From Candidatus Omnitrophota bacterium (GTDB taxonomy: Bacteria; Omnitrophota; Gorgyraeia; Duberdicusellales; 4484-171), in NCBI GenBank assembly GCA_041652815.1, contig JBAZGN010000001.1, positions 573,855-637,854 on the forward strand: 64,000 bases of DNA. Direction: 5' to 3'. Below the pieces are notes generated by a model. It was not told where the DNA came from and did not search any database. It saw only the letters and a program-made list of their open reading frames with translations. The translations under genes were made by a program, and so were the position numbers. Each line of letters opens with the position of its first letter. The stretch's first letter is position 1. Below, one piece after another: positions 4,194-57,701 of the stretch.

Positions 4194-4218
4194 TGCGCCT
4201 GGCAGGTGCATTTTGAAA

Positions 4219-4305
4219 CGCAGATGATCACAGATGACAGACGCAGATGATCACAGATGATTTTATCTGCGATCATTTGTTTTATAATCTGTGCTAATCT
4301 GTGTA
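4219..4305. promoter_or_regulatory. Promoter-region word repeat ('family A'): 2x ACGCAGATGATCACAGATGA direct repeat, then ATCTGCGATCA, TATAAT-like box and AATCTGTGCTAATCTGTGTAA just upstream of the RBS
   Basis: Direct tandem 20-mers seen in sequence. The tail motif AATCTGTGYTAATCTGTGTAA recurs upstream of the gene at 55891, and ATCTGTGATCATCTGTGTAA upstream of 16111 and 27938. Confidence 0.55.
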
Positions 4306-4321
4306 ACAAGAGGAGGATAAA

Positions 4322-6368: not shown

Positions 6369-6379
6369 ATAGTAAATAA

Positions 6380-6520
6380 AATCACAAATCACAATATACA
6401 AATTACAAACAATTTACAATAAACAATGACTAAAATTACAAATAGAAAGATATCTTTTCGGTATTGTGATTTTGTAATTGTTTATTGTTTGTAATTTGCG
6501 ATTTGGTAATTGTAATTTTT
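6380..6520. promoter_or_regulatory. Large imperfect inverted repeat built from ACAAATTACAAACAATTTACAATAAACAAT words, upstream of the cNMP-patatin gene
   Basis: Left arm ~6380-6425 is the reverse complement of right arm ~6460-6515. Confidence 0.5.
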
Positions 6521-8405: not shown

Positions 8406-8614
8406 TCCCTTTTGCCAGAATTCCCTGCCCGCTCGCCCGCCCGCCGTACGGCGGACAGGGCTACGACCGCGGATGAATAGCGGAAAGGGGTGCCGTCCGC
8501 TTTAAGTGGGCGAAAGGAAAATAGCCCATGGCACGCCTGTCTACCAGGCTGAAAGCCTGTTGGACTGCCTTCGGCAGCCAGGCCAGTGCGGGCTCCAGAA
8601 AGGAAAGATTTATA

Positions 8615-10377: not shown

Positions 10378-10427
10378 TTTAACCTCCCTAATTCTGCCCT
10401 GCCCGCTTTATAAGCGGGGTTGATCCA

Positions 10428-11087: not shown

Positions 11088-11140
11088 AAAAATATATTAG
11101 CATTGAATTTTGAAAAATCAACTATATAATTGGTAAAAAG

Positions 11141-11200
11141 CCTTCAGTCGTCAGTCTTCAGCTATCAGCTGGAAGCTGAAGACTGATAGCTGAAAGCTGA
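11141..11200. repeat. Family B palindromic word repeat (cttcagtcgtcagtcttcagc ... gctgaagactgatagctgaaagctga)
   Basis: Nested inverted repeats seen directly. Upstream of the amrS-like gene. Confidence 0.6.
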
Positions 11201-11202
11201 AC

Positions 11203-13288: not shown

Positions 13289-14935
13289 ATGAGTAAGAAT
13301 AAAAGCATAAAAGATATCCTGATTTTGATTGTTGTTTCGGGTTTGTTGTTTCTGTTAGGAAATAACATAATAAGCCTGACTAATGATAACGAAGTTTTTT
13401 ATGCTCAGACTGCCAAGGAAATGATTCAGCAAAATACCTGGTCAACGCCTTATTTATTCGGCCAGCCGCAATTTGAGAAGCCGATTTTTATATATTGGCT
13501 TCTTAGGTTTAGCTTCATGATTTTTGGGGTCAATGCAGCTGCCGCGCGTTTTTTTCCCGCAATTTTTGGAGTGTTAGGTGTAATTACACTTTATTTTCTT
13601 GGTTTGCTTGGATTCAAAGACCGCTCAAAGGCATTCCTTTCAAGTATTATTCTAATGTCCTGCGGTATGTATATCGGGCTAGCCAAAACAGTGTTTACCG
13701 ATATGTTTTTTTCGGTACTTATTATGATGTCGCTTTCATTTTTCTTTTTCGCCTATGTAAATCAAAAGAAAAAGTTAATCGGATTATTATTGTCGGCAAT
13801 CTGCATGGGTTTTGCAGTTTTGACCAAGGGCCCGCTCGGCATATTAATACCGTGTTTCGCCATAATTGCCTTTTTGTTGATTAAGAAAGATTTAAGATTT
13901 CTATTTTGCAAAGAGACAATATGGTCATTTTTTGTTTTATTTTTAACAATTGCCCCTTGGTATATACTTATGATTCAAAAGTACGGAAATACTTTCGTGA
14001 ATGAATTTATTTTAAATGATAATTTAAGAAGAGCAGTAGAAGCTCAACACGGCGGGCACGATACCTGGTATTACTATCCTTCCCTGATTGTTTCCGGCAT
14101 GCTTCCTTGGAGTTTGTTTGTTTTGGGGGCTTTAGCTTTTTTATATAAGGGGCTAAGGCAAAAAGAGAATTCATTCTATATTTTTCTGGTTTGCTGGATA
14201 GGTTCGGTATTTTTGATATTTCAGGTTGCGCATTCTAAAGTAGCAAATTATATTTTTCCTGCCTTTGCGCCAATGGCTTTGCTTACTGGAGGCTTCATAC
14301 GTGATATTTTAAGCAACAACAAATATAAAAGCATTTTATATGTAGTTTTATCTGTAATATCATTTTTTGTTTTGTCTATTCCAATTGCTTTGTTTTTTAG
14401 TTCCAAAAAATACGCAAACTACATAGGAAATTCTGCCGGGGTATACTTTTTAATTGCCGGGTTTTTATTGTTAGCCGCGGCAATTTTATTTTGTATATAC
14501 AGGAAAAAACTATCAGCAGCGATTTATCTGGTGGGAGCAATAGTCCCGATATTTTTATGCAGCCTGCCGCTTATCCATAATAATTTTGAACCCTATATTT
14601 CTTCAAAAGCTGCTTCAGAATATTTATTAAAGAATGCAGAAATAAACAACACTATAATTTGCTCAAAAACTTTTGTCCGCGGGGTGAAGTATTATACCGA
14701 CAAAGATGTCGCAGTGTTAGATATACCGGGTAAGCAGTTTTTTAGCAAGCACCCTTTAATCTTCCTATCTTCGGACCGGGAATTGAAGGAATTTTTGTTT
14801 AAACAGGTAACGACTTATTGCGTAGTGGGCAAATCATTAGCCGCAGACATAAAACGCATAGCAAACAATGATTTTAAAGTTACTGTTTTAAAAATAATAG
14901 GCAACGAATATATTATAGAGGTTCAGCGTCTTTAG
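13289..14935 (+). CDS. Glycosyltransferase family 39 (ArnT/PMT-like, polytopic membrane)
   Basis: Multiple TM segments and the N-terminal loop motif typical of ArnT-like GT39. Confidence 0.7.
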   Translation: MSKNKSIKDILILIVVSGLLFLLGNNIISLTNDNEVFYAQTAKEMIQQNTWSTPYLFGQPQFEKPIFIYWLLRFSFMIFGVNAAAARFFPAIFGVLGVITLYFLGLLGFKDRSKAFLSSIILMSCGMYIGLAKTVFTDMFFSVLIMMSLSFFFFAYVNQKKKLIGLLLSAICMGFAVLTKGPLGILIPCFAIIAFLLIKKDLRFLFCKETIWSFFVLFLTIAPWYILMIQKYGNTFVNEFILNDNLRRAVEAQHGGHDTWYYYPSLIVSGMLPWSLFVLGALAFLYKGLRQKENSFYIFLVCWIGSVFLIFQVAHSKVANYIFPAFAPMALLTGGFIRDILSNNKYKSILYVVLSVISFFVLSIPIALFFSSKKYANYIGNSAGVYFLIAGFLLLAAAILFCIYRKKLSAAIYLVGAIVPIFLCSLPLIHNNFEPYISSKAASEYLLKNAEINNTIICSKTFVRGVKYYTDKDVAVLDIPGKQFFSKHPLIFLSSDRELKEFLFKQVTTYCVVGKSLAADIKRIANNDFKVTVLKIIGNEYIIEVQRL

Positions 14936-15719
14936 GCGCAGGTTCATTGCTTGAAGTGTTTTTGAATATTTTTGAAGCAAAAACCAGCCAGCCGGTATGT
15001 GACGGCATATGTTGTTCGGGTCGGGTTTTACCGCGGCGAACAAGTATATTTCGAATAAAAACTTCTATACTGTCAATATTAATAAACCCTTTTTCTTCAA
15101 GCGCGAATACTGTTTTTGTAAGTTGTTCAAAGGTGGGGCATATTGTTGCAAGGCGCGAGCCGCCTTTTAGCGCTTTATAGGCAGCGTCAATTAAGTCCCA
15201 CTGGCTTCCAATGTCAATCATTACAAAATCAACTTCGCTTTCATCGTAACTGTCAGTTACTTCACGAAGTTTAAACTCAACATACTCGCTAAGCCCGTAT
15301 TTTTCAATATTCTTTTTGGCGTTTTCAAGAAACTCTTTATTCCTGTCATAGCTGTAAACTTTTCCGCCGGGCCTTACGAAATTTGCTAATGCCGTTGTGA
15401 GCGCTCCGCTTCCAGCGCCTGATTCAATTACCCGTGCTCCGGGAAATATATTTGCTCTCGTAAGTATTATTCCGATATCTTTAGGATAAAGAATCTGGGT
15501 TTTCCTTTTTACTTTCATTACCATTTCATGCAGGTATGGCCGCAAAATATAGAAGGTATGCTTAAGGTTGGTTTCAATTTTTTGCCCGAATTCTTTGCCG
15601 ATTATATCTTTTAATTCAAGGAAGCCTAAATCGGTGTGAAGCCTGCCGCCCTGTATTTTTATAAGATAATTGCGTTTTTCGTCTTTATAAAGAAATACCA
15701 GCTCTCCTTCGTTAATCAT
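14913..15719 (-). CDS. trmI: tRNA (adenine-N1)-methyltransferase TrmI/GCD14 family
   Basis: SAM-binding VIESGAGSGALTTALA motif and GCD14 architecture. 3' end overlaps the GT39 gene by 23 nt (convergent). Confidence 0.75.
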   Translation of the reverse strand: MINEGELVFLYKDEKRNYLIKIQGGRLHTDLGFLELKDIIGKEFGQKIETNLKHTFYILRPYLHEMVMKVKRKTQILYPKDIGIILTRANIFPGARVIESGAGSGALTTALANFVRPGGKVYSYDRNKEFLENAKKNIEKYGLSEYVEFKLREVTDSYDESEVDFVMIDIGSQWDLIDAAYKALKGGSRLATICPTFEQLTKTVFALEEKGFINIDSIEVFIRNILVRRGKTRPEQHMPSHTGWLVFASKIFKNTSSNEPAPKDAEPL

Positions 15720-15969
15720 AATAGTTATAATAATACAGTTTGGAGATTATTTTGCAATAGAAATATACAGCTGTCAGCCTTCAGCCGTCAGCTTTCAGTT
15801 CTATTTTTTTGCTGAAAGCCCCGCCACCTTATAAAAACATTTAAGCGGGTCAACCTGTTGGTTGAGAAGACTGATAGCTGACAGCTAGCCCAGAAAACCC
15901 TTGCAAAATAAAGGGGATTGTAATAAACTTTTGATACGCAGATGAGCACAGATTGGAAAGCGGACGATT

Positions 15970-16119
15970 ACAGATTTATTATTATCGTTTATGTACCACG
16001 TATCAGGTAACACGTAACAGGCCTTTACGGCGTGATACGTGTTACCTGATACGTGATACAGAATCTATGCTATCTGTGATCATCTGTGTAAGCCGAACGG
16101 AGTGAGGCAAATGAAATAT
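15970..16119. repeat. ~150-bp dispersed element, copy 1: 19-bp perfect palindrome CACGTATCAGGTAACACGT/ACGTGTTACCTGATACGTG, CTGTGATCATCTGTGTAA, RBS GGAGTGAGG and ATGAAATAT start
   Basis: ~94% identical to 27797..27946, mismatches concentrated in the right palindrome arm. Includes the first codons (MKY) of the downstream gene. Confidence 0.75.
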
Positions 16120-17310
16120 ATATTCATAGTTCCCGACGGAGCAGCGGATTATCCCAATGAAATTCTCGGCGGCAAAACTCCGCTGGAAGCTGCGGATAAA
16201 CCTTTTATGAACCAACTAGCAAAAGAAGGGGTATTAGGAAGAGTAAAAACTGTTCCTTCAGGATTTCAGCCGGCGAGTGATGTGGCAAATCTTTCGCTTC
16301 TTGGCTATGAACCGGAAAAGTATTATTGCGGCCGCGGCCCGCTCGAAGCCGCTAATTTCGGCATAACACTGGGGGAAGATGATTTGGCTTTTCGTTGTAA
16401 CCTCATTAGCGAGTCAGAAGGAAAACTTCTTGATTATAGCGCGGGGCACATCAGCGACAGAGAAGCCCGTATCCTCATAGAACATCTCGATAAAAATCTT
16501 GGAACAGAAGATATAAAATTTTATGCCGGAAAAAGTTACCGCCATCTTATGGTTTATAAAAAGGGAGTTAAGCTTTTATTGGAGAAGCTTAATTTCTTCG
16601 CTCCGCACGATATTATGGGTAGAGGTATTAAGAAGCATCTACCGTCCGGCCGTGGAAGCGAACATATAATTACGCTTATGAACCGTTCAAGAGAGCTTCT
16701 AAAAGACCACGAAATAAATAAAGTGCGTATAGATTTAGGAGAAAATCCTGCTAATATGATTTGGCTTTGGGGCGCGGGGCGCCGGCTCGCGATTCCTGCA
16801 TTTAAAGAAAAGTTTGCAATCTCCGGTGCAGTAATTTCCGCAGTTGACCTTATAAATGGCATTGGCAAAATCATAGGCTTAAAAGTTATTGAAGTTTCCG
16901 GCGCCAATGGTTATTATGATACGAATTATAAAGGCAAAGCTGAGGCAGCAATAAAGGCGCTGGATGATTGTGATTTCGTATTTATTCATATAGAAGCAAC
17001 AGATGAAGCCGGCCACAACAATGATTTAAGGATGAAAATTACCTGTATTGAACGGATAGACAAGCTTGTTGTAGGGACTATTGTGGAGAGAATGAAAGGC
17101 AAAGATTACCGGATTATAATTACACCTGATCATCCCACACCTGTTTCAAAACGCACGCATACAGATGAGCCTGTTCCGTTTGTTTTAGCCGGCCCCGGCA
17201 TAAATAGGCAGAATTTTTCCTCGTATTGTGAAGCAGAAGCCGCAAATTCAAGCCTCTACTTTGCAAGCGGGCCAGACCTGATGAATTATTTTCTAGGTAG
17301 TTTTCGCTGA
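16111..17310 (+). CDS. apgM: 2,3-bisphosphoglycerate-independent phosphoglycerate mutase, archaeal-type (ApgM family)
   Basis: Full-length cofactor-independent PGM (ApgM/COG3635) similarity. Start taken as the ATG inside the shared repeat (MKYIFIVPDG); the listed 16102 start is GTG. Confidence 0.8.
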   Translation: MKYIFIVPDGAADYPNEILGGKTPLEAADKPFMNQLAKEGVLGRVKTVPSGFQPASDVANLSLLGYEPEKYYCGRGPLEAANFGITLGEDDLAFRCNLISESEGKLLDYSAGHISDREARILIEHLDKNLGTEDIKFYAGKSYRHLMVYKKGVKLLLEKLNFFAPHDIMGRGIKKHLPSGRGSEHIITLMNRSRELLKDHEINKVRIDLGENPANMIWLWGAGRRLAIPAFKEKFAISGAVISAVDLINGIGKIIGLKVIEVSGANGYYDTNYKGKAEAAIKALDDCDFVFIHIEATDEAGHNNDLRMKITCIERIDKLVVGTIVERMKGKDYRIIITPDHPTPVSKRTHTDEPVPFVLAGPGINRQNFSSYCEAEAANSSLYFASGPDLMNYFLGSFR

Positions 17311-18701: not shown

Positions 18702-18775
18702 TAGTAGCACGTCGCATGTAACACGCATCAAGCCAAGGCGTGTTACTTGATACGTGTTACCTGATACGTGAACAA
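18700..18775. promoter_or_regulatory. Family A palindromic words upstream of cimA (GTAACACGCATCAAGCCAAGGCGTGTTAC hairpin + ACGTGTTACCTGATACGTG arm)
   Basis: Shares the exact 19-mer arm with the 15970 element. Confidence 0.55.
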
Positions 18776-20350
18776 ATGAAGAAAATATTTATCTACGACA
18801 CAACCTTACGCGACGGAGCACAGACCGAAGGCATTTCTTATTCGTTGCACGATAAAATTAATATCACTAAACGGCTTGATGATTTCGGTATAAGTTTTAT
18901 TGAAGGCGGATGGCCTTATTCAAATCCGAAAGATAAGGAGCTTTTTGAATATTTCAGAAAGCACCCTTTAAAAAAAGCCAAAATTGTCCCTTTCGGTTCT
19001 ACTGCGCATCCATCACACCCCGCGTCAAAAGATAAAAATCTGTTAAGTCTTGTAAAAAGCAATACAGAATACGTAACAATTTTTGGAAAAACCTGGGATT
19101 TGCACGTAAGAGATATCCTTAAAATACCGCTTGAGGATAACCTGAAAATAATTTTTGAAAGTGTAAAGTTTTTAAAAAAACAAGGCAAGAAAGTTTTTTA
19201 TGACGCAGAACATTTTTTTGACGGTTTTAAAGCTAATTCCAATTACGCATTAAAAACCATTCGTGCAGCACTTGAAGCAGGAGCAGATTTGGTTATTTTT
19301 TGCGATACAAACGGGGGAACGCTTACCTGGCAGGCGCTTGACATCATAAAACAGGTAAAAGAGGCATTATCCATAAATGATTTTGGAATGCATTGCCATA
19401 ATGATTTAGACCTAGCCGTAAGCAACTCTATTTCTGCCGTAAAATATGGCTGCAGCCATATTCAAGGGACAATAAATGGTTATGGAGAACGTTGCGGCAA
19501 TGCCGATTTGATTTCAATTATGGCGATACTTCAGCTTAAGATGGGTTATGATATCATACCTGCAAATAAAATGCCCACACTTGCGCATTTGTCTTATTAT
19601 GTAAGTGAAGTAAGCAATGTTGCTCATCACGATAACCATCCTTTTGTAGGTAAATCTGCGTTTGCGCATAAAGGGGGTATTCATATAGATGCAGTAATCA
19701 AAAATCCCCTGGCTTACGAACATATTTTGCCTTCCGCAGTAGGGAACAAAAGCAGGTTTATAGTTTCTGAATTAGCCGGAAAATCTACATTGGTAGTAAA
19801 AGCTAAGGAATTGGAATTTGATTTGAATAAAAAATCCCCGCAGGCAATAAGAATACATAAGCTTATACAGGAGCTTGAGAGGCAAGGCTATCAATTTGAA
19901 GCAGCAGAAGGCTCTTTTAAGCTTCTTTTGCAGAAAGAATTTAGAAAGTATAAAAAGTTTTTTAGCCTCCTAGGCTTTAGGGTCAGCGTTGAAAAAAGAG
20001 AAGATGGCCGTCTTATATCGGAAGCGGTAATTAAGCTTAAAATAAATGATAAATTAGAACATAGCGCCGCAGAAGGCGATGGCCCGGTTAATGCCCTGGA
20101 TAATGCTTTGAGAAAAGCGCTGGCTAAATTTTACCCGACTATTTCTAAAATGCATCTTACTGATTTTAAGGTAAGGGTTCTTGATGAGAAATGCGGCACC
20201 GCCGGAAAGGTGCGCGTGTTAATACAGTCGCAGGATGAGGATGAAGACTGGTCGACCATAGGCGTTTCGGAGAATATTATCGAAGCAAGCTGGCAAGCCC
20301 TGCTTGACTCTGTCGAATACAAACTCCTTAAAGACTCCAAGAATAAGTAA
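18776..20350 (+). CDS. cimA: (R)-citramalate synthase / LeuA-family HMGL-like enzyme
   Basis: IYDTTLRDGAQ N-terminus, ~525 aa with a C-terminal LeuA-dimer-like domain. Start moved to internal MKKIFIYD. Confidence 0.75.
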   Translation: MKKIFIYDTTLRDGAQTEGISYSLHDKINITKRLDDFGISFIEGGWPYSNPKDKELFEYFRKHPLKKAKIVPFGSTAHPSHPASKDKNLLSLVKSNTEYVTIFGKTWDLHVRDILKIPLEDNLKIIFESVKFLKKQGKKVFYDAEHFFDGFKANSNYALKTIRAALEAGADLVIFCDTNGGTLTWQALDIIKQVKEALSINDFGMHCHNDLDLAVSNSISAVKYGCSHIQGTINGYGERCGNADLISIMAILQLKMGYDIIPANKMPTLAHLSYYVSEVSNVAHHDNHPFVGKSAFAHKGGIHIDAVIKNPLAYEHILPSAVGNKSRFIVSELAGKSTLVVKAKELEFDLNKKSPQAIRIHKLIQELERQGYQFEAAEGSFKLLLQKEFRKYKKFFSLLGFRVSVEKREDGRLISEAVIKLKINDKLEHSAAEGDGPVNALDNALRKALAKFYPTISKMHLTDFKVRVLDEKCGTAGKVRVLIQSQDEDEDWSTIGVSENIIEASWQALLDSVEYKLLKDSKNK

Positions 20351-20480
20351 ATCTTGAAATTTTAAATAACCAAGCTCCAATTTCCAATAACCAAAAAATA
20401 ACCAATAACCAAATTCTAATATCCAAAAAGATAAGAAAAAAATGTTTGGTTATTGATTATTGGGATTTATTTGGTTATTG
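20345..20480. promoter_or_regulatory. Inverted repeat of CCAATAACCAAA words
   Basis: ccaataaccaaaaaataaccaataaccaaa ... tttggttattgattattgg ... ttggttattgtatcttggttattgg. The listed ORF start at 20453 lies inside it. Confidence 0.5.
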
Positions 20481-22689: not shown

Positions 22690-22833
22690 CGTTGCCTGAA
22701 TCCCTGCTGCCCCTGGCGGCAGGGATGAATGGTGGAAAGGGGCGTCGCCCTTACGGGCCCCAGTAATCAGTATTTCGAAAGGCTGGTTATATCCAGAAAT
22801 AGCAAAAAGTTATTTAAAAATTTAAATAGTGAT
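22690..22833. promoter_or_regulatory. GC-rich structured leader upstream of ilvB; related to the element at ~8408-8530
   Basis: Both carry a CCCTGC..GGCGGCAGGG hairpin, then GGATGAAT-RGYGG-AAAGGGG-YG.CG. Confidence 0.4.
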
Positions 22834-24498: not shown

Positions 24499-24685
24499 GG
24501 TACAGATGATTGCAGATAAAAGATAGTCGTCAAACGTTGCGGTTACCCGCCCACCGGAGGCGGGCGAGCTCGTCATGGTTGCGTTAAACGTAAGACGTCT
24601 GACGATGGACGAAACGAGTCGCACAACCGATTGACGTAAGACAATTTATGATATATTAATCTGTGTATGAGGAGCGAAGCGACGA

Positions 24686-26163: not shown

Positions 26164-26232
26164 ATAGCTATCAGCCATCAGTCGTCAGCCTTCAGTAGCT
26201 GACAGCTGAGAGCTGACAGCTGAGAGCTAAAA
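26164..26232. repeat. Family B palindromic word repeat between ilvC and leuA
   Basis: atagctatcagccatcagtcgtcagccttcagtagctgacagctgagagctgacagctgagagct. Confidence 0.6.
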
Positions 26233-27732
26233 ATGGAAAGGATAATAATATTTGATACGACATTACGCGATGGGGAGCAGGCTCCCGGCGCGTCTTTAAC
26301 TGCCGAGCAGAAGCTGGAGGTAGCTTTCCAGCTGGAAAGGCTGGGGGTAGATGTAATTGAGGCAGGTTTTCCTATTGCAAGCCCGGGGGATTTTAACGCG
26401 GTAAATTCCGTTGCGCGCAACATAAAAAACTGTATCGTCTGCGGCCTTGCAAGGTGCGTTAAGGCAGACATAGAAGCCGCATATAAATCTTTACGTAAAG
26501 CAAAGAATCCCCGCATTCACGTTTTTCTCGCTACCTCAAAAATTCATCTTCAGTACAAATTCAAAAAAGCCGAAGAAGAGATTCTGGATTTGGGCCGCTA
26601 TGCGCTAAAGCTTGCGCGGAATTATTTTGAGGACATAGAATTTTCTCCTGAGGATGCAACGCGTACGGAAAAAGAATTTTTGTTCAAAGTTATCGAAATG
26701 GCTATAGATGAAGGCGCAAAAACAATAAATATTCCCGATACTGTAGGCTATAGTTATCCGCATGAAATCAGTTCCCTGATTTCTTCTATCGCCGGCAATG
26801 TGCCGAATATAAATAAAGCAGTAATTTCTATACATTGCCATGATGATTTGGGTATGGCTGTTGCTAATTCTGTTTCTGCAGTTTTGGGCGGTGCTCGGCA
26901 GGTGCATTGTACGGTAAACGGAATTGGTGAACGCGCAGGTAATGCATCCCTTGAAGAAATAGTTATGGCTTTAAGGACGCGTAAAGATGTATTTGGTAAA
27001 TTTTACAATAATATAAATACAAAAGAACTTTGCCGCACATCCAAAATGGTAAGCACCTTAACCGGGTTTGTTGTTCCTCCCAATAAAGCCATAGTGGGTG
27101 ATAATGCTTTCAGGCACGAAAGCGGTATACACCAGGACGCGGTTTTAAAAAAACGGACAACTTATGAAATAATCGACCCTAAAGACGTGGGAATGGGGGA
27201 AAGCGAGCTTGTTTTAGGCAAACACTCAGGCCGCCACGCGCTTATTGCGAGATTAAAAAATTTAGGGCTTAAGCTTGACGATAAAAAAACAGATTTAATT
27301 TTTAAAAGATTTAAAGAATTAGCCGATAAGAAAAAAGAAATTTTCGATGAAGATCTTATTACTTTGGTTGAGGAAGAAACAAAAGAAAAAAGGCAAGGCT
27401 ATGAACTTTTATCTATCCGGGTTTTTACCGGGACAGATGTAGTGCCGCAGGCGACCGTAAAAATAAAATATAAAAAGAAAATATATGAGGCAGCCTCCAG
27501 CGGAGACGGCCCGGTTGATGCATGCTATAAAGCTATAGACAAAATTACAAAAATAAAGACAAAACTTATTACTTATAGCCTGGAAGCTATTACAAAAGGA
27601 AGAGACGCTCAAGGGCTTGCCAGAGTAGAAATAAAAGCGAAGGCCAAGTTTACTTACGGTAAAGGCGCAAGCACCGATATTTTAGAGGCATCAGCTAAAG
27701 CATACCTTGATGCCTTAAATAGGCTTGGTTGA
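26233..27732 (+). CDS. leuA: 2-isopropylmalate synthase
   Basis: [24 protein letters not shown] and a LeuA dimerisation domain. Confidence 0.85.
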
Positions 27733-27796
27733 TTTACGCAAATTACTGCGAATTAAGAAATTCCTGCCAGCCGGCGGGGATGTAAAGCTGATGGTC

Positions 27797-27946
27797 ACAG
27801 ATTTATTATTACCGTTTATGTACCACGTATCAGGTAACACGTAACAGGCCTTTACGGCGTGATACGTGTTACGTGCGACGTGATACAGAATTTATGCTAT
27901 CTGTGATCATCTGTGTAAGCCGAACGGAGTGAGGCGAATGAAATAT
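27797..27946. repeat. ~150-bp dispersed element, copy 2 (right palindrome arm degenerate)
   Basis: Aligns base-for-base with 15970..16119 with about 9 substitutions. Confidence 0.75.
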
Positions 27947-28393
27947 GTAGTAAACGTAATTGCTATCTTTGTAGTAGTAATTATAGTTGTTCTTGCCGTA
28001 ACCTTCAGGAATAATACAGATAGGCTTCCCTTCCAATACGAAATCAAAAAATTTTTCAACGAATTCTCGCAAATGATAAAAACAAGGACTGCCAATGTCA
28101 AGATGGAGCTCGCTCCCTCAAGAAGAAAAAAAACCACCTTCATAGATAAAGAAGAACAATTACGCCAATTCATTCCGGATGTGTTTGGAAAATTCAGCGA
28201 ATCTGACTGGCGCAATTTCTGGTCATTTATTTACGACCCTGTTTACGACAAAAAGAGTAAATACGGCGGGAAAAGATACCGCACTAAAGAAGAAATCGAA
28301 AGTTTTCTTCGTAACCGGTTCTCTATCTTCAATTATCTTGATATCGGGCACTGGCATTATTTCTGGAGTATCGTGGATGTAAAGTTCGAATAA
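27938..28393 (+). CDS. Hypothetical membrane-anchored protein (one N-terminal TM)
   Basis: Shares its 5' UTR and first three codons (MKY) with apgM through the repeat. Confidence 0.45.
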   Translation: MKYVVNVIAIFVVVIIVVLAVTFRNNTDRLPFQYEIKKFFNEFSQMIKTRTANVKMELAPSRRKKTTFIDKEEQLRQFIPDVFGKFSESDWRNFWSFIYDPVYDKKSKYGGKRYRTKEEIESFLRNRFSIFNYLDIGHWHYFWSIVDVKFE

Positions 28394-32397: not shown

Positions 32398-32535
32398 ATT
32401 AAAGAAGATACTTCGGACGCTCTTATTTATCGCGTCCTCAGTATCAATTCGCACTATCATTTTTTCTGCGCCACGCCCGCATAGCGGCGGTCAGGGCTTG
32501 AAAAAATGATGTGCCCATTGAGGAGGTGTTTAATG
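32398..32535. promoter_or_regulatory. Modular 5' leader, copy 1: conserved AAGATACTTCGGACGCTCTTAT(T/C)TATCGCGTCCTCAGTATCAATTCGC + variable long hairpin + conserved CATTGAGGAGGTGTTT RBS
   Basis: Same architecture at ~39056-39192 upstream of spoVG. The middle hairpins differ in sequence but each is a perfect ~10-bp stem. Confidence 0.6.
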
Positions 32536-37356: not shown

Positions 37357-37429
37357 GCCGAGGTAGCTCAGTCGGTAGAGCGATGGACTGAAAATCCATG
37401 CGTGGGGAGTTCGATTCTCTCCCTCGGCA
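37357..37429 (+). tRNA. tRNA-Phe (GAA)
   Basis: Cloverleaf with acceptor GCCGAGG/CCTCGGC, anticodon loop CTGAAAA, T-loop GTTCGATTC. Preceded by hairpin agccctgtaaagggct. Confidence 0.85.
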
Positions 37430-37642: not shown

Positions 37643-38215
37643 ATGAATGAAACAGAACTTATAGGGCGCTGTATAAACAAGGAAAAACAAGCGTGGGATA
37701 TCTTTGTTGAGCGTTACAGCAGGTTGATTTATTGGGCAATCAGAAAACGGCTTAAGGCGAGCAGCTTTACATTTAGCGAAGATGATGTTCAGAATATTTT
37801 TCAGGAAGTATTTCTTTCTATCCTTGAAGGCGAAAAGCTTACTCAGTTAAGAGATGCCAAGCTGATTTGCAGCTGGTTGGCAATGATAGCTTCCAATAAA
37901 GCCTTTGATTTTATGCGGGGAACGCTTCGTAACAAGCAGCGTTTCATCGCAGATGTTATATTATTGAAGAATAAGGATTGCGAGCAAAATTTATCCGATA
38001 GAGAAACTATAAACATTCTAGAAAACATAATTAATACCCTCTCTGACCGGGAAAAAATCATTATTTCTTTGAATCTTCTTGAAGAAAAAACACATAAGGA
38101 AATTTCCGGTATCCTGGGGATACCCATTAATACCGCCTCAACCATAATTGCCAGGACTAAAGAAAAAATCAAAAAAGAACTGGGTAAATATGGAATAAGC
38201 GGGCAATCTATTTGA
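37643..38215 (+). CDS. ECF-type RNA polymerase sigma-70 factor
   Basis: Sigma-70 region 2 (IFVERYSRLIYWAIRKRL...FQEVFLSI) and region 4 HTH. Confidence 0.8.
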   Translation: MNETELIGRCINKEKQAWDIFVERYSRLIYWAIRKRLKASSFTFSEDDVQNIFQEVFLSILEGEKLTQLRDAKLICSWLAMIASNKAFDFMRGTLRNKQRFIADVILLKNKDCEQNLSDRETINILENIINTLSDREKIIISLNLLEEKTHKEISGILGIPINTASTIIARTKEKIKKELGKYGISGQSI

Positions 38216-38827: not shown

Positions 38828-39055
38828 AAGTTAAATAATTTTTTAAAGCCCGCCTTATTTATGCTTATCTAATTTACACTCCCAGGTAAATCCTCATATC
38901 TAAAAAATTAAAAATTTTTGAAAGAATTTTTCATGATGCCGCGTCTATTAAGTAAAGGGGATAGATAACTCATTTTACAAGATACTACCTATTCTAATGC
39001 GCTTCTAAACACAGCAACTGATGAGTTTTTTTGATTGACGGGAAAAGGGTTTGTT

Positions 39056-39192
39056 TATTAAAGATACTTCGGACGCTCTTATTCATCGCGTCCTCAGTAT
39101 CAATTCGCGCATACAACTTATGTTCGCCCTGCCTGCCAGAGGCAGGCGTAGCTGCCATAAGTTGTGCGCTCATTGAGGAGGTGTTTGCTATG
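39056..39192. promoter_or_regulatory. Modular 5' leader, copy 2, upstream of spoVG
   Basis: Conserved 5' module and CATTGAGGAGGTGTTTGCTATG 3' module identical to copy 1. Variable central hairpin acaacttatg...cataagttgt with inner gcctgcc..ggcaggc. Confidence 0.6.
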
Positions 39193-39447
39193 GGGTTAGA
39201 ATTCAAAGTTGCAAGGCTTCACAAATTTGATGGTAACGGCGCGATAAAAGCAATGTGTGATATCTCAATTTCTGATCAGCTTGTGGTCAAGGGTTTTAAA
39301 ATTATTGAGGGTAAAAACGGCTTATTTGTAGGAGTGCCGCAGGAAAAAGGCAAAAATGGCAAGTGGTACGATAACGTTTTTCCTTTAACGCCAGAAGTGC
39401 TTGAAACTATTAGAAAAACCGTGCTTTCTGCGTATCAGGGTGATTGA
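39190..39447 (+). CDS. spoVG: SpoVG-family protein
   Basis: KAMCDISISDQLVVKGFKIIEGKNGLFVGVP matches the SpoVG core. Start moved to internal MGLEFKV after GGAGG. Confidence 0.8.
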   Translation: MGLEFKVARLHKFDGNGAIKAMCDISISDQLVVKGFKIIEGKNGLFVGVPQEKGKNGKWYDNVFPLTPEVLETIRKTVLSAYQGD

Positions 39448-39538: not shown

Positions 39539-40063
39539 ATGCATAAGATGCTAATTATTGAAGAAGCAGTTGAGAGGAAAATCTATTTAATCCGCGGCCG
39601 TAAAGTGATGCTTGATAGAGATTTGGCTGAATTGTATAAGGTTTCAACAAAGGTATTAAATCAGGCAGTTAAGCGGAATACAAAAAGATTCCCGCCAGAT
39701 TTCATGTTTCGGTTAACGGATGAAGAAAAAAATGAACTGGTCACAAATTGTGACCGGTTCAGCGCCTTGAAACATTCCACGGTAACGCCAAACGTTTTTA
39801 CCGAACACGGTATTCTAATGCTTTCCAGTGTTTTAAATAGCGAACATGCAATACAGGTCAATATTGCAATTATGCGTGTGTTTGTAAAGCTTCGCGAAGT
39901 CATTTCAGGCTACAAAGAACTTGCTGTTAAGCTAAACGAATTAGAGCGAAAAATTGAAAAACACGATAATGAGATAAAGGCTATTTTTGATGCTATCCGT
40001 CAGCTTATGCTGGCTGAAGAAAAACCAAAGCGTAAAATAGGATTTCATGAAAATCAGGCTTAA
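39539..40063 (+). CDS. ORF6N (KilA-N-like) domain protein
   Basis: IRGRKVMLDRDLAELYKVSTKVLNQAVKRNTKRFPPDFMFRLTDEE is the canonical ORF6N N-terminal domain. Confidence 0.7.
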   Translation: MHKMLIIEEAVERKIYLIRGRKVMLDRDLAELYKVSTKVLNQAVKRNTKRFPPDFMFRLTDEEKNELVTNCDRFSALKHSTVTPNVFTEHGILMLSSVLNSEHAIQVNIAIMRVFVKLREVISGYKELAVKLNELERKIEKHDNEIKAIFDAIRQLMLAEEKPKRKIGFHENQA

Positions 40064-44341: not shown

Positions 44342-44425
44342 TTTCTACCTGTCTTTCTTTAATTTTTTAATCTAACACAAAAATCAGCCGCTAATCCCGC
44401 CGGCTGGAATGAATTGTTAGAAATA

Positions 44426-47826: not shown

Positions 47827-48033
47827 GCGCAAACGATTGGAGCAAAGAGAAACAATAAACTTCCATCAATTCCCTAATCTCTACCAATTTTCCGCCAGAG
47901 GCGGATCCGCCCACATATAAAAAGTCATCGGTGGCGGACAATCGAAATTAATTGAAATTTGCTTCGCGAAATTGATTGAAATTTATTGTTTAATGAAATT
48001 TTTTTATTCTTGTATATCTGCGGCTATCTGTGT

Positions 48034-49335: not shown

Positions 49336-49400
49336 TTACCTTAAAAAACATCAAAGTAAATGTCAAGGATTTAATTCGCACTATTATTTTTTCAAACTGT
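49336..49400. promoter_or_regulatory. Perfect 15-bp inverted repeat ATCCTTGACATTTAC / GTAAATGTCAAGGAT containing TTGACA, upstream of the B12-rSAM gene (minus strand)
   Basis: Seen directly. Candidate operator overlapping a -35-like hexamer. Confidence 0.45.
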
Positions 49401-49469: not shown

Positions 49470-49548
49470 AACTAATTTAGACCAAGGTTGAGGTTAAGGC
49501 TAAGGTTAAGTTAGGAATTTTAGCCTAAACCTCAACCTCAGCCTTAAC
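49470..49548. promoter_or_regulatory. Inverted repeat of GGTTAAGG/GAGGTTGAGG words (ggttgaggttaaggctaaggttaag ... cttaaacctcaacctcagccttaac) upstream of tilS
   Basis: Seen directly. Confidence 0.5.
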
Positions 49549-54465: not shown

Positions 54466-54606
54466 ATGAAGCTTTTTCGATTAAGAAAAATAAACCTAAA
54501 AGAACTTGTAACTTACAATTTTTGGCTTAAGCTAATTTCCTTGGTTTTGGCAATAATTGTCTGGTTGTACGTAAGCAGCGAAATAACTAAAGGCGTTAAA
54601 ATTTGA
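54466..54606 (+). pseudogene. 46-aa remnant resembling the N-terminal TM region of CdaR/YbbR (cdaA regulator); truncated where a family A repeat begins
   Basis: MKLFRLRKINLKELVTYNFWLKLISLVLAIIVWLYVSSE resembles YbbR N-termini. RBS GTGAGG upstream. The ORF stops at the first base of the CAGATGATCACAGATG repeat. Confidence 0.35.
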
Positions 54607-54680
54607 TACACAGATGATCACAGATGGTAGACGCAGATGATCACAGATAAAAATCTGCGATTATCTGTATACTAAAAAAG
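54605..54680. promoter_or_regulatory. Family A repeat (ACACAGATGATCACAGATGG TAG ACGCAGATGATCACAGATAA + ATCTGCGATTATCTGTATACT) upstream of pdxJ
   Basis: Near-copy of the 4219-4305 arrangement. Confidence 0.55.
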
Positions 54681-55409: not shown

Positions 55410-55763
55410 ATGGTAATGGGCATAGGCATAGATATGGTTAAGGTGGGGAAAATGCAAAGCGCCATTGAAAAGTGGGGTAAGGATTTTCTTAAGCGCGTTT
55501 TTGATAGTAAGGAACTGAAAAATATATCTGACGGAAAAATGTATTATCAGCGTTTGGCTGCCAGATTTGCCGCAAAAGAGGCAGTGATTAAGGCGATTTC
55601 AAAAGAATACCCACTGGCATTAAACGACATAATAATACTTAATCGTAAAAATGGCGCTCCTTATTGTGAGTTCAAAAAAAAGCTTGATGTAGAAATTTTA
55701 CTTTCAATAAGCCACATTGAGGATTATGCTGTGGCTTGTGCTGTTGCGCAGAAACACAGATGA
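55410..55763 (+). CDS. acpS: Holo-[acyl-carrier-protein] synthase
   Basis: GIGIDMV N-terminus and RFAAKEAVIKA core. Confidence 0.8.
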   Translation: MVMGIGIDMVKVGKMQSAIEKWGKDFLKRVFDSKELKNISDGKMYYQRLAARFAAKEAVIKAISKEYPLALNDIIILNRKNGAPYCEFKKKLDVEILLSISHIEDYAVACAVAQKHR

Positions 55764-55890
55764 TCGCAGAAGCAAAACAGATGATCGCAGATTTTGAGAA
55801 AGTATCATGTAACACGTCTTTAAAAACGTGTTACATGCTACGTGTGGCGTGATACGTAATCTGTGTTAATCTGTGTAAAGCAAAAATAAG
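55760..55890. promoter_or_regulatory. Family A repeat block (2x CAGATGATCGCAG; GTAACACGTCTTTAAAAACGTGTTAC hairpin; AATCTGTGTTAATCTGTGTAAAGC) upstream of nnrD, overlapping the acpS stop
   Basis: Seen directly. Confidence 0.55.
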
Positions 55891-56751
55891 ATGAAGCTGC
55901 CGAAACAACTAATAAAGCGTAAACTTGACACCTATAAAGGCGATTATGGTTATGTTTTTGTTTTGGGAGGCTCGCCGGGGCTAACCGGAGCAGTTTCTTT
56001 ATGCGCAAATGCCGCTTTAAGGATGGGCGCGGGTTTAGTAAGAGCAGCAGTTCCCGCATCCCTCGGTAATATACTCTCAACTAAACTTACAGAAGCGACA
56101 AGCCTTTTTCTTAACGAAGAAAATGGTTATCTTTCGGAAAAAGGCTTTCAGCAAATAACCGATTTGTTAGAAAGGATAGACGTAGTTGCTTTAGGTGGAG
56201 GAGCTTCTCAAGCTCCATGTGCTCAAAAGCTACTTTTAAAAGTAATTAAGAATGTCGACAAGCCAATGGTTATAGACGCAGATGCTTTAAACGCAATTTC
56301 TACTGTTTTAACCGTTTTGAAAGAAAGAAAATCAAAAAATATAGTTTTAACTCCGCATCTGGCTGAATTTTCCCGCTTAACCGGGCTTACGCTTAAAGCA
56401 ATAAAAGCAAAAAGAAAAGAACTTGTCAAGGAATTCGCTTTTAAGTATAATTTAACCCTCATTCTTAAGGGCAATCGCACCCTTGTAAGCAATGGCAAAA
56501 CGTTATTTGAAAATAATACCGGCAATCCCGGTATGGCAACAGCAGGTTGCGGCGATGTGTTGACAGGTATTATTGTCGGCTTAATGGCTCAAGGTATAGA
56601 TGTACTTACGGCAGCGAAGTTTGGGGTGTATATACACGGCTTAGCCGGTGATTTAGCTGCAAAAGATAAAACCGAAACCTGTTTGATTGCTTCCGATATA
56701 ATTGAGTATTTACCGAAAGCAGTAAAGAGATTAGCAACACGTAACACGTAA
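55891..56751 (+). CDS. nnrD: ADP-dependent NAD(P)H-hydrate dehydratase (YjeF C-terminal domain)
   Basis: KGDYGYVFVLGGSPGLTGA...GCGDVLTG motifs. Confidence 0.75.
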   Translation: MKLPKQLIKRKLDTYKGDYGYVFVLGGSPGLTGAVSLCANAALRMGAGLVRAAVPASLGNILSTKLTEATSLFLNEENGYLSEKGFQQITDLLERIDVVALGGGASQAPCAQKLLLKVIKNVDKPMVIDADALNAISTVLTVLKERKSKNIVLTPHLAEFSRLTGLTLKAIKAKRKELVKEFAFKYNLTLILKGNRTLVSNGKTLFENNTGNPGMATAGCGDVLTGIIVGLMAQGIDVLTAAKFGVYIHGLAGDLAAKDKTETCLIASDIIEYLPKAVKRLATRNT

Positions 56752-56863
56752 CAAGTAACACGTATCACGTTTCTAAAAACGTGTTACCTCCACTCCAAGT
56801 GGACTCACCTAAATATTTTTATATGGTGGCGAGGATACATGTGACGTGATACATGATAAATGC

Positions 56864-56936
56864 GCCCAGGTAGCTCAGTTGGTAGAGCAGGGGTTTTGTA
56901 AACCTCAGGTCGAAGGTTCGAGTCCTTTCCTGGGCT
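56864..56936 (+). tRNA. tRNA-Thr (TGT)
   Basis: Acceptor GCCCAGG/CCTGGGC, anticodon loop TTTGTAA, T-loop GGTTCGAGTCC. Flanked on both sides by family A words. Confidence 0.8.
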
Positions 56937-57144
56937 TTAAACACAGATGGTCACAGATTGGAAATCACAGATGAGCACAGATAGATTGTGTATCACGTCG
57001 CACGTAACACGTATCACGCCTTTTTAAATTCTCTGTTTATTCAATGACGTGTTACGTGATACCTGTTACCTGATACTTTCTCAAATCTGTGATCATCTGT
57101 TTTGTAAATCTGTGATTATCTGTGCAAAACGATCTGTGAAAAAC

Positions 57145-57227
57145 GGGCAGGTTCCTGAGCGGTCAAAAGGGACAGACTGTAAATCTGTTGTGCTTGCACT
57201 TCGGAGGTTCAAATCCTCCCCTGCCCA
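57145..57227 (+). tRNA. tRNA-Tyr (GTA), long variable arm
   Basis: Acceptor GGGCAGG/CCTGCCC, anticodon loop CTGTAAA, long variable arm, T-loop GGTTCAAATCC. Confidence 0.8.
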
Positions 57228-57475: not shown

Positions 57476-57494
57476 CAAATCCTCCCCTGCCCAT
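57476..57494. repeat. 19-bp direct duplicate of the tRNA-Tyr 3' end (CAAATCCTCCCCTGCCCAT), 247 bp downstream of the gene
   Basis: Exact match to 57210-57228. Intervening segment is rich in GCGAAG/CTTCGC words. Confidence 0.6.
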
Positions 57495-57587: not shown

Positions 57588-57701
57588 TTTAGTCCATAGT
57601 CGACAGTTAATAGTCCACAGAATTAAACTATGGGCTATGGTCTATTGACTGTGGACTATTTATGCTTTAATAACTATCACAAATAAAGAAGAGGAGAAGA
57701 G

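Follow-up and report, generated by a model that had tools for sequence, protein, structure and literature searches.

Why should two unrelated genes be preceded by almost the same 150 nucleotides? The question is raised by a 64,000-nucleotide stretch of a Candidatus Omnitrophota bacterium (contig JBAZGN010000001.1, positions 573,855 to 637,854; hereafter the window, in whose numbering all positions are given), where 15970-16119, upstream of the phosphoglycerate mutase gene apgM, and 27797-27946, upstream of a small membrane-protein gene, closely resemble each other. On the original prediction, the shared segment was a portable expression cassette or miniature mobile element that delivers promoter, operator, ribosome-binding site and start codon as one unit. 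Part of this idea stood, since the element is inserted, repeated and hairpin-forming and brings a ribosome-binding motif, but it delivers neither promoter nor operator nor start codon. Our analysis points, with good but not complete confidence, to the two 150-mers being the most similar pair in the window of a lineage-specific, non-coding, hairpin-forming family of intergenic repeats.

Two copies of one nested hairpin element

The two stretches align base for base, as had been proposed, with 144/150 identical positions and no gaps (offset 11827), which corresponds to 96% rather than the approximately 94% given earlier. The gap-free match can be extended to 15954-16122 (copy 1) and 27781-27949 (copy 2), both on the plus strand, with 157 of 169 positions (93%) identical, and similarity collapses on both sides beyond. 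With copy 1 as nhmmer query, copy 2 is recovered at E = 4e-40. Copy 1 lies in the 5' leader of apgM (16111-17310, plus strand; cofactor-independent enzyme, Pfam Metalloenzyme and PhosphMutase, start set from orthologues), within the divergent spacer that separates it from a PCMT/GCD14-type methyltransferase gene on the minus strand (14913-15719). Copy 2 occupies part of the 205-nt spacer between a leuA-like gene (26233-27732) and the small gene (27938-28393, plus strand), known from its homologues to encode a conserved Omnitrophota protein of 151 amino acids whose N-terminus is hydrophobic and which belongs to no Pfam family. Within this spacer, the leftmost 55 nt (27733-27787) have no significant repeat elsewhere in the window or in the compared loci. 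The two shared segments singled out before, CTGTGATCATCTGTGTAAGCCGAACGGAGTGAGGC and ATGAAATAT, are both present as described.

An ordinary segmental duplication including coding sequence, or a chimeric assembly join, might produce such a pair, and the identity does enter both coding sequences by 9-12 nt. However, the 9 nt in question are native to both genes in relatives, similarity does not go beyond codon 3-4, and the encoded proteins are not related to each other. In four independent assemblies (ERZ27247363, ERZ27247358, SRR18595300, and JGI 3300014205), the parts that overlap the window are 100% identical to it. The loci L001-L005 (L numbers denote compared loci), found by exact protein match, are likewise 100% identical to the window and hence carry no comparative information; L001 spans all of copy 1, and L002, L004, and L005 span all of copy 2. 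Since independent contigs carry both copies at 100% identity, an assembly artefact is excluded, and we regard a duplication or a chimeric join as an explanation with practically no chance of being right. The source samples look like landfill leachate, those of ERZ27247363 and Ga0172380/81 coming from a landfill in Southern Ontario.

The element combines two sequence flavours, outer arms of the type CAGATGATCACAGAT and an inner hairpin with CACGTAA/CACGTAT arms. In copy 1, the inner hairpin (15997-16055, plus strand) has a perfect 19-bp stem, CACGTATCAGGTAACACGT (15997-16015) and ACGTGTTACCTGATACGTG (16037-16055), the arms of which consist of tandem heptamers (CACGTAT CAGGTAA CACGTAA / CGTGATA CGTGTTA CCTGATA). 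In copy 2 (27824-27882, plus strand), the same stem is broken by three clustered changes in the right arm (CCTGATACG to CGTGCGACG), confirming that the palindrome is intact in one copy and mutated in the other. On its right, the inner hairpin is followed by the outer right arm (copy 1, ATCTGTGATCATCTGTGT, 16072-16089; copy 2, 27899-27916; plus strand), which in copy 1 is the exact reverse complement, i.e., a minus-strand match, of the family end CAGATGATCACAGAT and pairs with the left arms in the predicted fold. On its left, copy 2 has the outer arm CTGATGGTCACAGAT (27788-27802, plus strand), identified by motif match and predicted fold, and copy 1 has one extra outer-arm doublet, CGCAGATGAGCACAGAT (15937-15953, plus strand), that is predicted to pair with 16072-16089 and has no counterpart in copy 2. 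Terminal inverted repeats, which the original prediction proposed to look for, are thus present in the form of inverted CAGATGATCACAGAT ends.

Both copies end in a 21-nt tail, AAGCCGAACGGAGTGAGGC(A/G)A, hereafter tail A, in which GGAG precedes the ATG by 8 nt and GAGG by 3 nt. In copy 1 this is AAGCCGAACGGAGTGAGGCAA (16090-16110, plus strand; GGAG at 16099-16102, GAGG at 16104-16107), and in copy 2 it directly follows the outer right arm (27917-27937, the two together spanning 27899-27937, plus strand; GGAG at 27926-27929). Very stable folds are predicted for both RNAs, with -82.7 kcal/mol (z = -9.9) for copy 1 (15931-16125) and -61.1 kcal/mol (z = -4.5) for copy 2 (27780-27952). In both predictions, the outer arms are paired and the inner hairpin is nested within, while the tail is largely free, and the GGAG motif in GCCGAACGGAGTGAGGC is unpaired.

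Stabilities of this order might also be expected of a conserved cis-regulatory RNA (a riboswitch, RNA thermometer, or attenuator) that controls both genes, and the tail module does recur before clpB, a heat-shock gene (see below). However, only tRNAs match Rfam at the gathering threshold in the whole window, with nothing at the element, and in E-value mode both copies return only sub-threshold generic hairpin matches (miRNA and snoRNA models). Moreover, the element is not conserved at orthologous loci, the tail with its Shine-Dalgarno (SD)-like motif is not sequestered in the predicted folds, and there is no covariation. A terminator consensus scan found no T run after the hairpin at the element, which therefore does not look like an intrinsic terminator either. 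We consider a regulatory RNA very unlikely.

A family of heptamer-periodic hairpins in the spacers

The outer-arm doublet CAGATGATCACAGAT has 22 matches with up to 3 mismatches in the 64 kb, compared to 0.75 expected. The matches lie on the plus strand to the left and on the minus strand to the right of each intergenic hairpin, and a CACGTAA-type hairpin is often found between these inverted ends. A full-length alignment unites four composite members: the two copies; 56936-57130, in the tRNA-Thr/tRNA-Tyr spacer, which shares the outer and inner architecture but lacks an SD tail (nhmmer E = 1e-14); and 55755-55880 (E = 4e-7), between an acpS-like gene (55410-55763) and an NAD(P)HX dehydratase-like gene (55891-56751). 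Two members, recognised by motif and nhmmer, consist of outer arms only: 4213-4309, which ends in ATCTGTGTAACAAGAGGAGGATAAA before the ATG (4322) of a DUF2934 open reading frame (ORF), and 54603-54671, upstream of pdxJ (54681). Lone CACGT-type inner hairpins are found at 18704-18775 (E = 4e-7), abutting the ATG (18776) of a second leuA-like gene, and at approximately 56730-56790. All the members given with exact coordinates are numbered on the plus strand. The window thus holds at least 6 family members. The six ATCTGTGTA-type right ends on its plus strand all lie 9-22 nt before an annotated start codon, which partly reflects the fact that elements fill whole spacers.

Some elements also reach into genes or blur their limits. 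The TGA stop of the acpS-like gene lies inside a CAGATGATC left arm (55755-55771), GTAACAC heptamers make up the final codons of the NAD(P)HX dehydratase-like gene (56730-56775), and in locus L019, a GAAGGAA heptamer array extends into the leuA start. In the window, mechanical ORF listing places three starts at GTG codons inside the repeat tail or hairpin (16102, 27929, and 18740), where orthologue alignment gives ATG at 16111, 27938, and 18776. The alternative GTG start invoked earlier for the two genes, giving MR(Q/R)MKY, is an artefact of this kind, as all orthologues of both genes start at ATG. In practical terms, these elements lead mechanical ORF callers to misplace start codons.

The periodicity of the arms is a property of the intergenic DNA at large. 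Self-matching in the intergenic DNA of the window peaks at lags of 7, 14, and 21 nt (0.316, 0.313, and 0.293, against a background of approximately 0.27), and the coding DNA of the window has no peak at lag 7 or 14. Seventeen of 19 lag-7 runs are intergenic; one of the others lies upstream of the true ATG at 18776, i.e., within a mis-called gene start, and the second overlaps the 3' end of 55891-56751. Nearly every spacer in the window is a hairpin with tandem-heptamer arms of varied unit sequence, for example at 2088-2150, 6378-6519, 11139-11202, 15768-15815, 20370-20432, 26164-26232, 49480-49548, and 57600-57680, with units that include CAGCTGA, AAATCAC, AACCAAT, and AAGGTTA types. Across the clade, CACAGAT/GATGATC, CACGTAA, CAGCTGA, AGACCAA, GAGGTTA, and other units occur. 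Lag-7 and lag-14 peaks are also present in L008, L010, L015, L018, and L019, so that the periodicity reaches relatives down to 68% ApgM identity (NCBI label Candidatus Susulua stagnicola). Purely direct arrays (CAGAGGT x5) exist in L019 and L018, and the type of heptamer hairpin differs at the same site between relatives. This clade of Omnitrophota carries fast-turnover, heptamer-periodic hairpins at gene boundaries, some of them with translation signals; it is unusual for hairpin arms with a 7-nt period to come in so many sequence flavours.

Small, GC-rich hairpins (CCCTGCC...GGCAGGG or CCGCCACC...GGCGG) form a second class and are nested in or located beside the AT-rich heptamer hairpins (8420-8470, 10395-10425, 15820-15850, 22700-22728, 24540-24565, 27762-27782, 32470-32500, 44395-44415, and 47880-47930). 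A clean 41-nt insertion (TCCGCCACCTTTAAAAATAAGGCGGATCCGCCTTGGGCGGA) distinguishes L014 (8656-8764) from L015 (12908-12975) in the same spacer.

Insertion against pre-existing start codons

At apgM, the repeat begins just downstream of a promoter-like motif, TTGCAA (15901-15906)-N17-TAAACT (15924-15929; together 15901-15929, plus strand). The motif is outside the repeat and is conserved, with or without an insert, in seven lineages (the window, L013, L014, L015, L016, L018, and L019); this conservation, together with the consensus match, suggests that it is the promoter. What differs is the distance between the -10 hexamer and the apgM ATG. This is 7 nt in L019 and 12 nt in L016, with nothing else in the gap, and 85 nt in L015, 105 nt in L018, 106 nt in L013, and 107 nt in L014, where the gap is filled by a GAGGTTA/TAACCTC hairpin, a CAGAT-type hairpin with an AT-rich tail, an AGACCAA/TTGGTCT hairpin, and a GCATGGC/GCGCTAT hairpin, respectively. 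In the window it is 181 nt, filled by the CAGAT/CACGT element. The gene itself starts with ATGAAATA(T/C)AT in all seven lineages (the first 9 nt in the window being ATGAAATAT), and the leaders of the relatives are AT-rich and lack GGAG or GAGG (e.g., TATACAATATT). Since promoter-like motif, ATG, and MKY codons are the same in relatives without the element, they are native to apgM, and the element delivered none of them.

Copy 2 tells a similar story from within a conserved gene string (apgM, aspartokinase, leuA-like, ilvB, ilvN, ilvC, leuA, the small gene, and aroE). The 205 nt that separate the leuA stop from the ATG of the small gene in the window correspond to 11 nt in L011/L012 (TTCTTTTATAT), to 10 nt in L008/L009 (TTTTTCTTAT), and to a 4-nt overlap, ATGA, in L019; L010 has an unrelated, GC-rich insert of 151 nt. 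The short spacers and the overlap in relatives suggest that translational coupling is the ancestral state. All 15 full-length homologues of the small protein (57-87% identity, all from Omnitrophota) begin with MKY or MRY, and at the DNA level, the gene starts with ATGAAATA(T/C) in every compared locus (five distinct sequences from seven loci, as two locus pairs are identical; the L019 sequence ends after ATGAAATAT). The relatives' leaders, such as TTCTTTTATAT, are again devoid of GGAG and GAGG.

Given that orthologous sites are empty, new DNA must have arrived at both loci. Both copies are derived, lineage-specific insertions set against pre-existing start codons, judging from the alignment of orthologous loci, which either are empty or have unrelated inserts; the suggestion that the element is inserted, and is not a conserved leader, was therefore correct. 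The same comparison supports the idea that the element carries the SD motif, since each copy places GGAG 8 nt before the ATG and relatives lack GGAG at both sites. By contrast, the start codon was wrongly attributed to the element, as ATGAAATAT (MKY) is ancestral in both genes.

Much of the cassette idea depended on shared regulation, with the 19-bp palindrome as an operator within a promoter/operator unit that co-regulates apgM and the small gene. The perfect 19-bp inverted repeat of copy 1, located ahead of a gene, and an upstream sequence common to two unrelated genes would be natural grounds for this proposal. However, the palindrome is absent upstream of both genes in every relative examined and is broken in copy 2, and its arms consist of generic tandem heptamers like those next to tRNA genes and at further gene ends. 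The single promoter-like motif that is conserved is outside the repeat, and a sigma-70 consensus scan found no promoter-like site common to both copies. Copy 2, moreover, is intercistronic, inside the ilv-leu gene string and not at a promoter, which is at odds with co-regulated promoters. There is, in our opinion, hardly any room left for a shared regulatory site.

Within the window, an SD-like motif precedes only 19 of the 66 genes, and only apgM and the small gene start with ATGAAATAT (2/66). The right boundary of the identity between the copies falls exactly at ATGAAATAT, which could be a coincidence or could reflect microhomology used in copying. Parts of the element are found at other genes as well. 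The right arm plus tail A (ATATCCGTGATCATCTGTGTAAGCCGAACGGAGTGAGGCT, followed by the ATG) stands directly before clpB in L006 (from metagenome-assembled genome JALOBR01) and L007 (a JGI contig), which belong to a sister species whose ClpB is 93% identical to the ClpB from the same sample as the window contigs. In that sample, the clpB leader (L017) lacks the arm-tail module; with its presence before clpB only in L006/L007, the module is at different genes in two close species. Two tail scans (20-21 nt), of genome and of metagenome contig collections, returned one locus each, the same clpB locus, but they undercount, as known copies in short JGI contigs were missed. A CIRCE-like inverted repeat (TTAGCAGAG-N9-GAGTGCTAA) is located upstream of clpB (175-201 in L017, approximately 675-701 in L006), downstream of a MerR/HspR-like gene, and hrcA, grpE, and dnaK follow clpB in L017. 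Given this repeat and these downstream genes, HrcA is the probable regulator of clpB, irrespective of the repeat tail.

A different insert, with CAGAT-type ends and another inner hairpin, is located between ilvB and ilvN (24499-24685, plus strand) and ends in a second tail, GTGTATGAGGAGCGAAGCGACGA (tail B), directly before the ATG. Tail B precedes ilvN in both the window and L010, and leuA in L012. The two genes overlap by 4 nt (ATGA/GTGA) in L008 (6931-6934) and L015 (18388-18391), and they are kept apart by a hairpin insert of 75-187 nt in the window, L010 (6567-6683), and L012 (397-471). The flanks of this insert, GCT-T(GA/AA/AG) on the left and ATGA on the right, are compatible with a 3-4-nt duplication of the ATGA overlap, but only suggestively so. 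The presence of the insert does not track the protein-identity ranking of the lineages.

How did copies at two loci become so alike? The two copies have diverged from each other far less than the host has from its nearest sampled relative (92% ApgM amino acid identity), suggesting that the last copying or homogenisation was recent. Given the 4% difference, one copy was probably copied recently into the other locus or homogenised with it, by a transposition-like process or by templated conversion. The latter option can be phrased as gene conversion with no new insertion, as the original prediction also envisaged, in which older, diverged CAGAT members at both loci were homogenised by a tract of approximately 150 nt, via conversion or template switch, that ran from the CACAGAT arm, shared on the left, to its resolution in the natively shared ATGAAATAT on the right. 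We see this as a possible, if less probable, course of events; it is a variant of our explanation that concerns the origin of the 96% identity, not another account of what the element is. Several observations fit. Left of 15970, the identity falls from 96% to approximately 62% but remains family-like, across an outer arm that has diverged (10 of 16 positions identical over 15954-15969). At its three clustered differences, copy 2 matches 56981-57020, to which its right inner arm is 95% complementary, rather than copy 1, which gives the conversion proposal some support. The uneven identity, the missing outermost arm of copy 2, and the match to 56981-57020 together suggest patchwise exchange among members. 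Finally, the right boundary coincides with 9 nt that are native to both genes and rare as a gene start in the window. On the other hand, the closest sampled relatives (86% and 82% small-protein identity) have no element at all at the small-gene site, so that an insertion is needed anyway; 9 nt are very short for resolving homologous recombination; and the arm and tail at clpB in another species cannot stem from conversion between these two loci. We also considered that 22 nt had been deleted between direct ACAGATT repeats at the left boundary, and dropped this because the four-way alignment fits a gap-free, more diverged left arm and a copy 2 without the outermost doublet.

A recently spread insertion element, as we favour it, has several points to contend with. 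No target-site duplication is readable at either copy, and the native spacers are replaced, not split. No transposase or RAYT-like gene (REP-associated tyrosine transposase, Y1 type) is present among the window genes with Pfam information (30 proteins scanned directly, and approximately 6.5-37.1 kb covered via precomputed Pfam hits of syntenic orthologues, with seven genes at 59.3-63.7 kb left out). Only two full copies of the exact subfamily were seen, to which the undercounting tail scans add one locus. In copy 2, the outermost left arm is missing and the left arm that is present has only approximately 62% identity with that of copy 1, so that a conversion tract between older members fits at least as well as a fresh insertion of the whole element. 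Lastly, RNAalifold on four family members gives no compensatory base-pair changes, so that covariation lends no support to selection on RNA structure, and the hairpin could equally reflect how the DNA repeat is generated.

For the insertions themselves, consequences for expression can be proposed from the position of the signals. At apgM, transcription would start a few nt after TAAACT, at approximately 15934-15936 and thus at the left edge of the element, which would then form the entire 5' untranslated region (approximately 175-180 nt), beginning with a nested stem-loop at the 5' end and finishing with the ribosome-binding tail in single-stranded form; relatives without the insert would have a leaderless message or one with a very short leader. 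At the small gene, the element would be transcribed within the ilv-leu message, and translational coupling would be replaced by an independent ribosome-binding site behind a large stem-loop. In both cases the tail may provide a ribosome-binding site and so make up for the loss of leaderless or coupled initiation. The stem-loop is probably an mRNA end-protecting or processing structure, by analogy with the hairpins of repetitive extragenic palindromes (REPs), bacterial interspersed mosaic elements (BIMEs), and Correia elements. The comparison between relatives provides a clear natural experiment, with the same boundary being leaderless or overlapping in some relatives and carrying a structured insert of 75-205 nt in others, and with the insert bringing its own ribosome-binding motif in at least 3 cases. 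If this motif is functional, it would show how a compact, SD-poor genome tolerates and exploits invasive hairpins, and would offer a handle on the origin of heptamer repeats like the STRR sequences of cyanobacteria.

A more far-reaching view, which we offer as speculation with rather little chance of being correct, is that this Omnitrophota clade has an undescribed process that builds 7-nt-unit hairpins and spreads them at gene boundaries, some with translation signals, inserting them without killing expression. Conceivably, though this is just as doubtful, the translation signals would be a 3' ribosome-binding tail or stop codons within the arms, and the sites would be packed or overlapping genes or positions behind leaderless promoters. 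The module shared by copy 1, copy 2, and clpB would, on the same slender odds, be a mobile hairpin that carries a ribosome-binding site and has its 3' end set against ATGAA(A) starts by microhomology.

Other features of the window are distinct from the repeat family. The 17-nt 3' end of tRNA-Tyr (AAATCCTCCCCTGCCCA, 57211-57227) is repeated exactly approximately 250 nt downstream (57477-57493; 0 expected by chance) and resembles the attachment-site scar of an integrated element. A 76-nt direct repeat with 83% identity (AAGATACTTCGGACGCTCTTATTTATCGCGTCC...) is present at 32405-32480 and 39061-39136, the second copy being located at the start of a SpoVG-domain ORF (39031-39447), and a related AATTCGCACTAT(C/T)ATTTTTT motif occurs near 49375. 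Just downstream of a tRNA gene (37357-37429) are genes for a protein with sigma-70 region 4 only (37643-38215) and an ORF6N-domain protein (39539-40063). The ORF6N family is common in phages and mobile elements, and these genes may be a small integrated-element remnant.

Comparison with known repeat systems

Small interspersed hairpin repeats (REP, miniature inverted-repeat transposable elements (MITEs), Correia, and BOX) are known to reshape bacterial gene expression. Correia elements of Neisseria are MITEs inserted in 5' leaders, with a TA target-site duplication. The Omnitrophota element has much in common with MITEs: it is 130-200 nt long and non-coding, with a spurious GTG extension of the downstream gene as its only ORF, and it has terminal inverted repeats, dispersed copies, and both empty and filled orthologous sites between relatives. 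The window genes with Pfam information include no cognate transposase, and an autonomous partner with the same ends may exist elsewhere in the genome. The small BOX, RUP, and SPRITE repeats of pneumococci provide a further comparison to leader-inserted elements (PMC3049150). Like Correia and BOX/RUP/SPRITE, the element is short, non-coding, bounded by terminal inverted repeats, variably present between relatives, and inserted next to gene starts, and by analogy its hairpins may be co-transcribed and alter the expression signals of the neighbouring gene. Unlike them, it has no identifiable target-site duplication or cognate insertion sequence and no sequence similarity to these families, and its arms are 7-nt periodic.

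The concept of REPINs, REP doublets forming hairpins, is reportedly due to Bertels and Rainey. REPs and their RAYT transposases have been described (PMC2817692, PMC8266576). The Omnitrophota repeats, like REPINs and BIMEs, are abundant, non-coding, intergenic, imperfect palindromes, present in high copy as inverted doublets whose arms form a long hairpin; they make mosaics with other small repeats, are located between co-directional genes, and differ among related genomes. REP hairpins in mRNA shield upstream segments from 3' exonucleases, and the Omnitrophota element might have a similar effect. The differences are that its arms consist of heptamers in tandem and lack a conserved tetranucleotide of the GTAG type at the 5' end (the sequence of the family ends being TTTGATAC(A/G)CAGATG), that no RAYT gene or Y1-transposase domain occurs among the window genes assessed, that the composite unit has 130-200 nt compared to approximately 35 nt per REP, and that one subfamily has a ribosome-binding tail.

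Small dispersed repeats nested in other repeats were reportedly described in Nostoc by Elhai et al. in 2008. The Omnitrophota spacers likewise have hairpin modules inside hairpin repeats (the CACGT hairpin within CAGAT arms, and GC-rich mini-hairpins in heptamer hairpins), but sequences and host phylum differ. Short tandemly repeated repetitive (STRR) sequences of cyanobacteria are heptanucleotide repeats. TAACTGA direct repeats have been reported from Beggiatoaceae, Cyanobacteria, and Bacteroidetes (PMC4679880). As in these systems, the tandem 7-nt units of Omnitrophota are essentially intergenic and often lie a few nt before start codons, and the genomes concerned have few canonical ribosome-binding sites. 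The defining units in direct arrays (CCCCAGT, TTGGTCA, and CAACAGT for STRR; TAACTGA) are, however, not the units found here, and whereas STRR and TAACTGA mainly form direct arrays of one or a few units, the Omnitrophota units are many, are mostly arranged in inverted arrays that often form nested hairpins, turn over between close relatives, and occur in a different phylum. In the literature searched, there is no earlier description of such repeats in Omnitrophota, the nearest reports being PMC4679880, PMC3049150, PMC2817692, and PMC8266576. The closest analogues of the element upstream of apgM and the small gene are thus REPIN/BIME, MITE/Correia/BOX, and the STRR and TAACTGA heptamer repeats, each of which shares part of its features, but we would not assign it to any one of these families.

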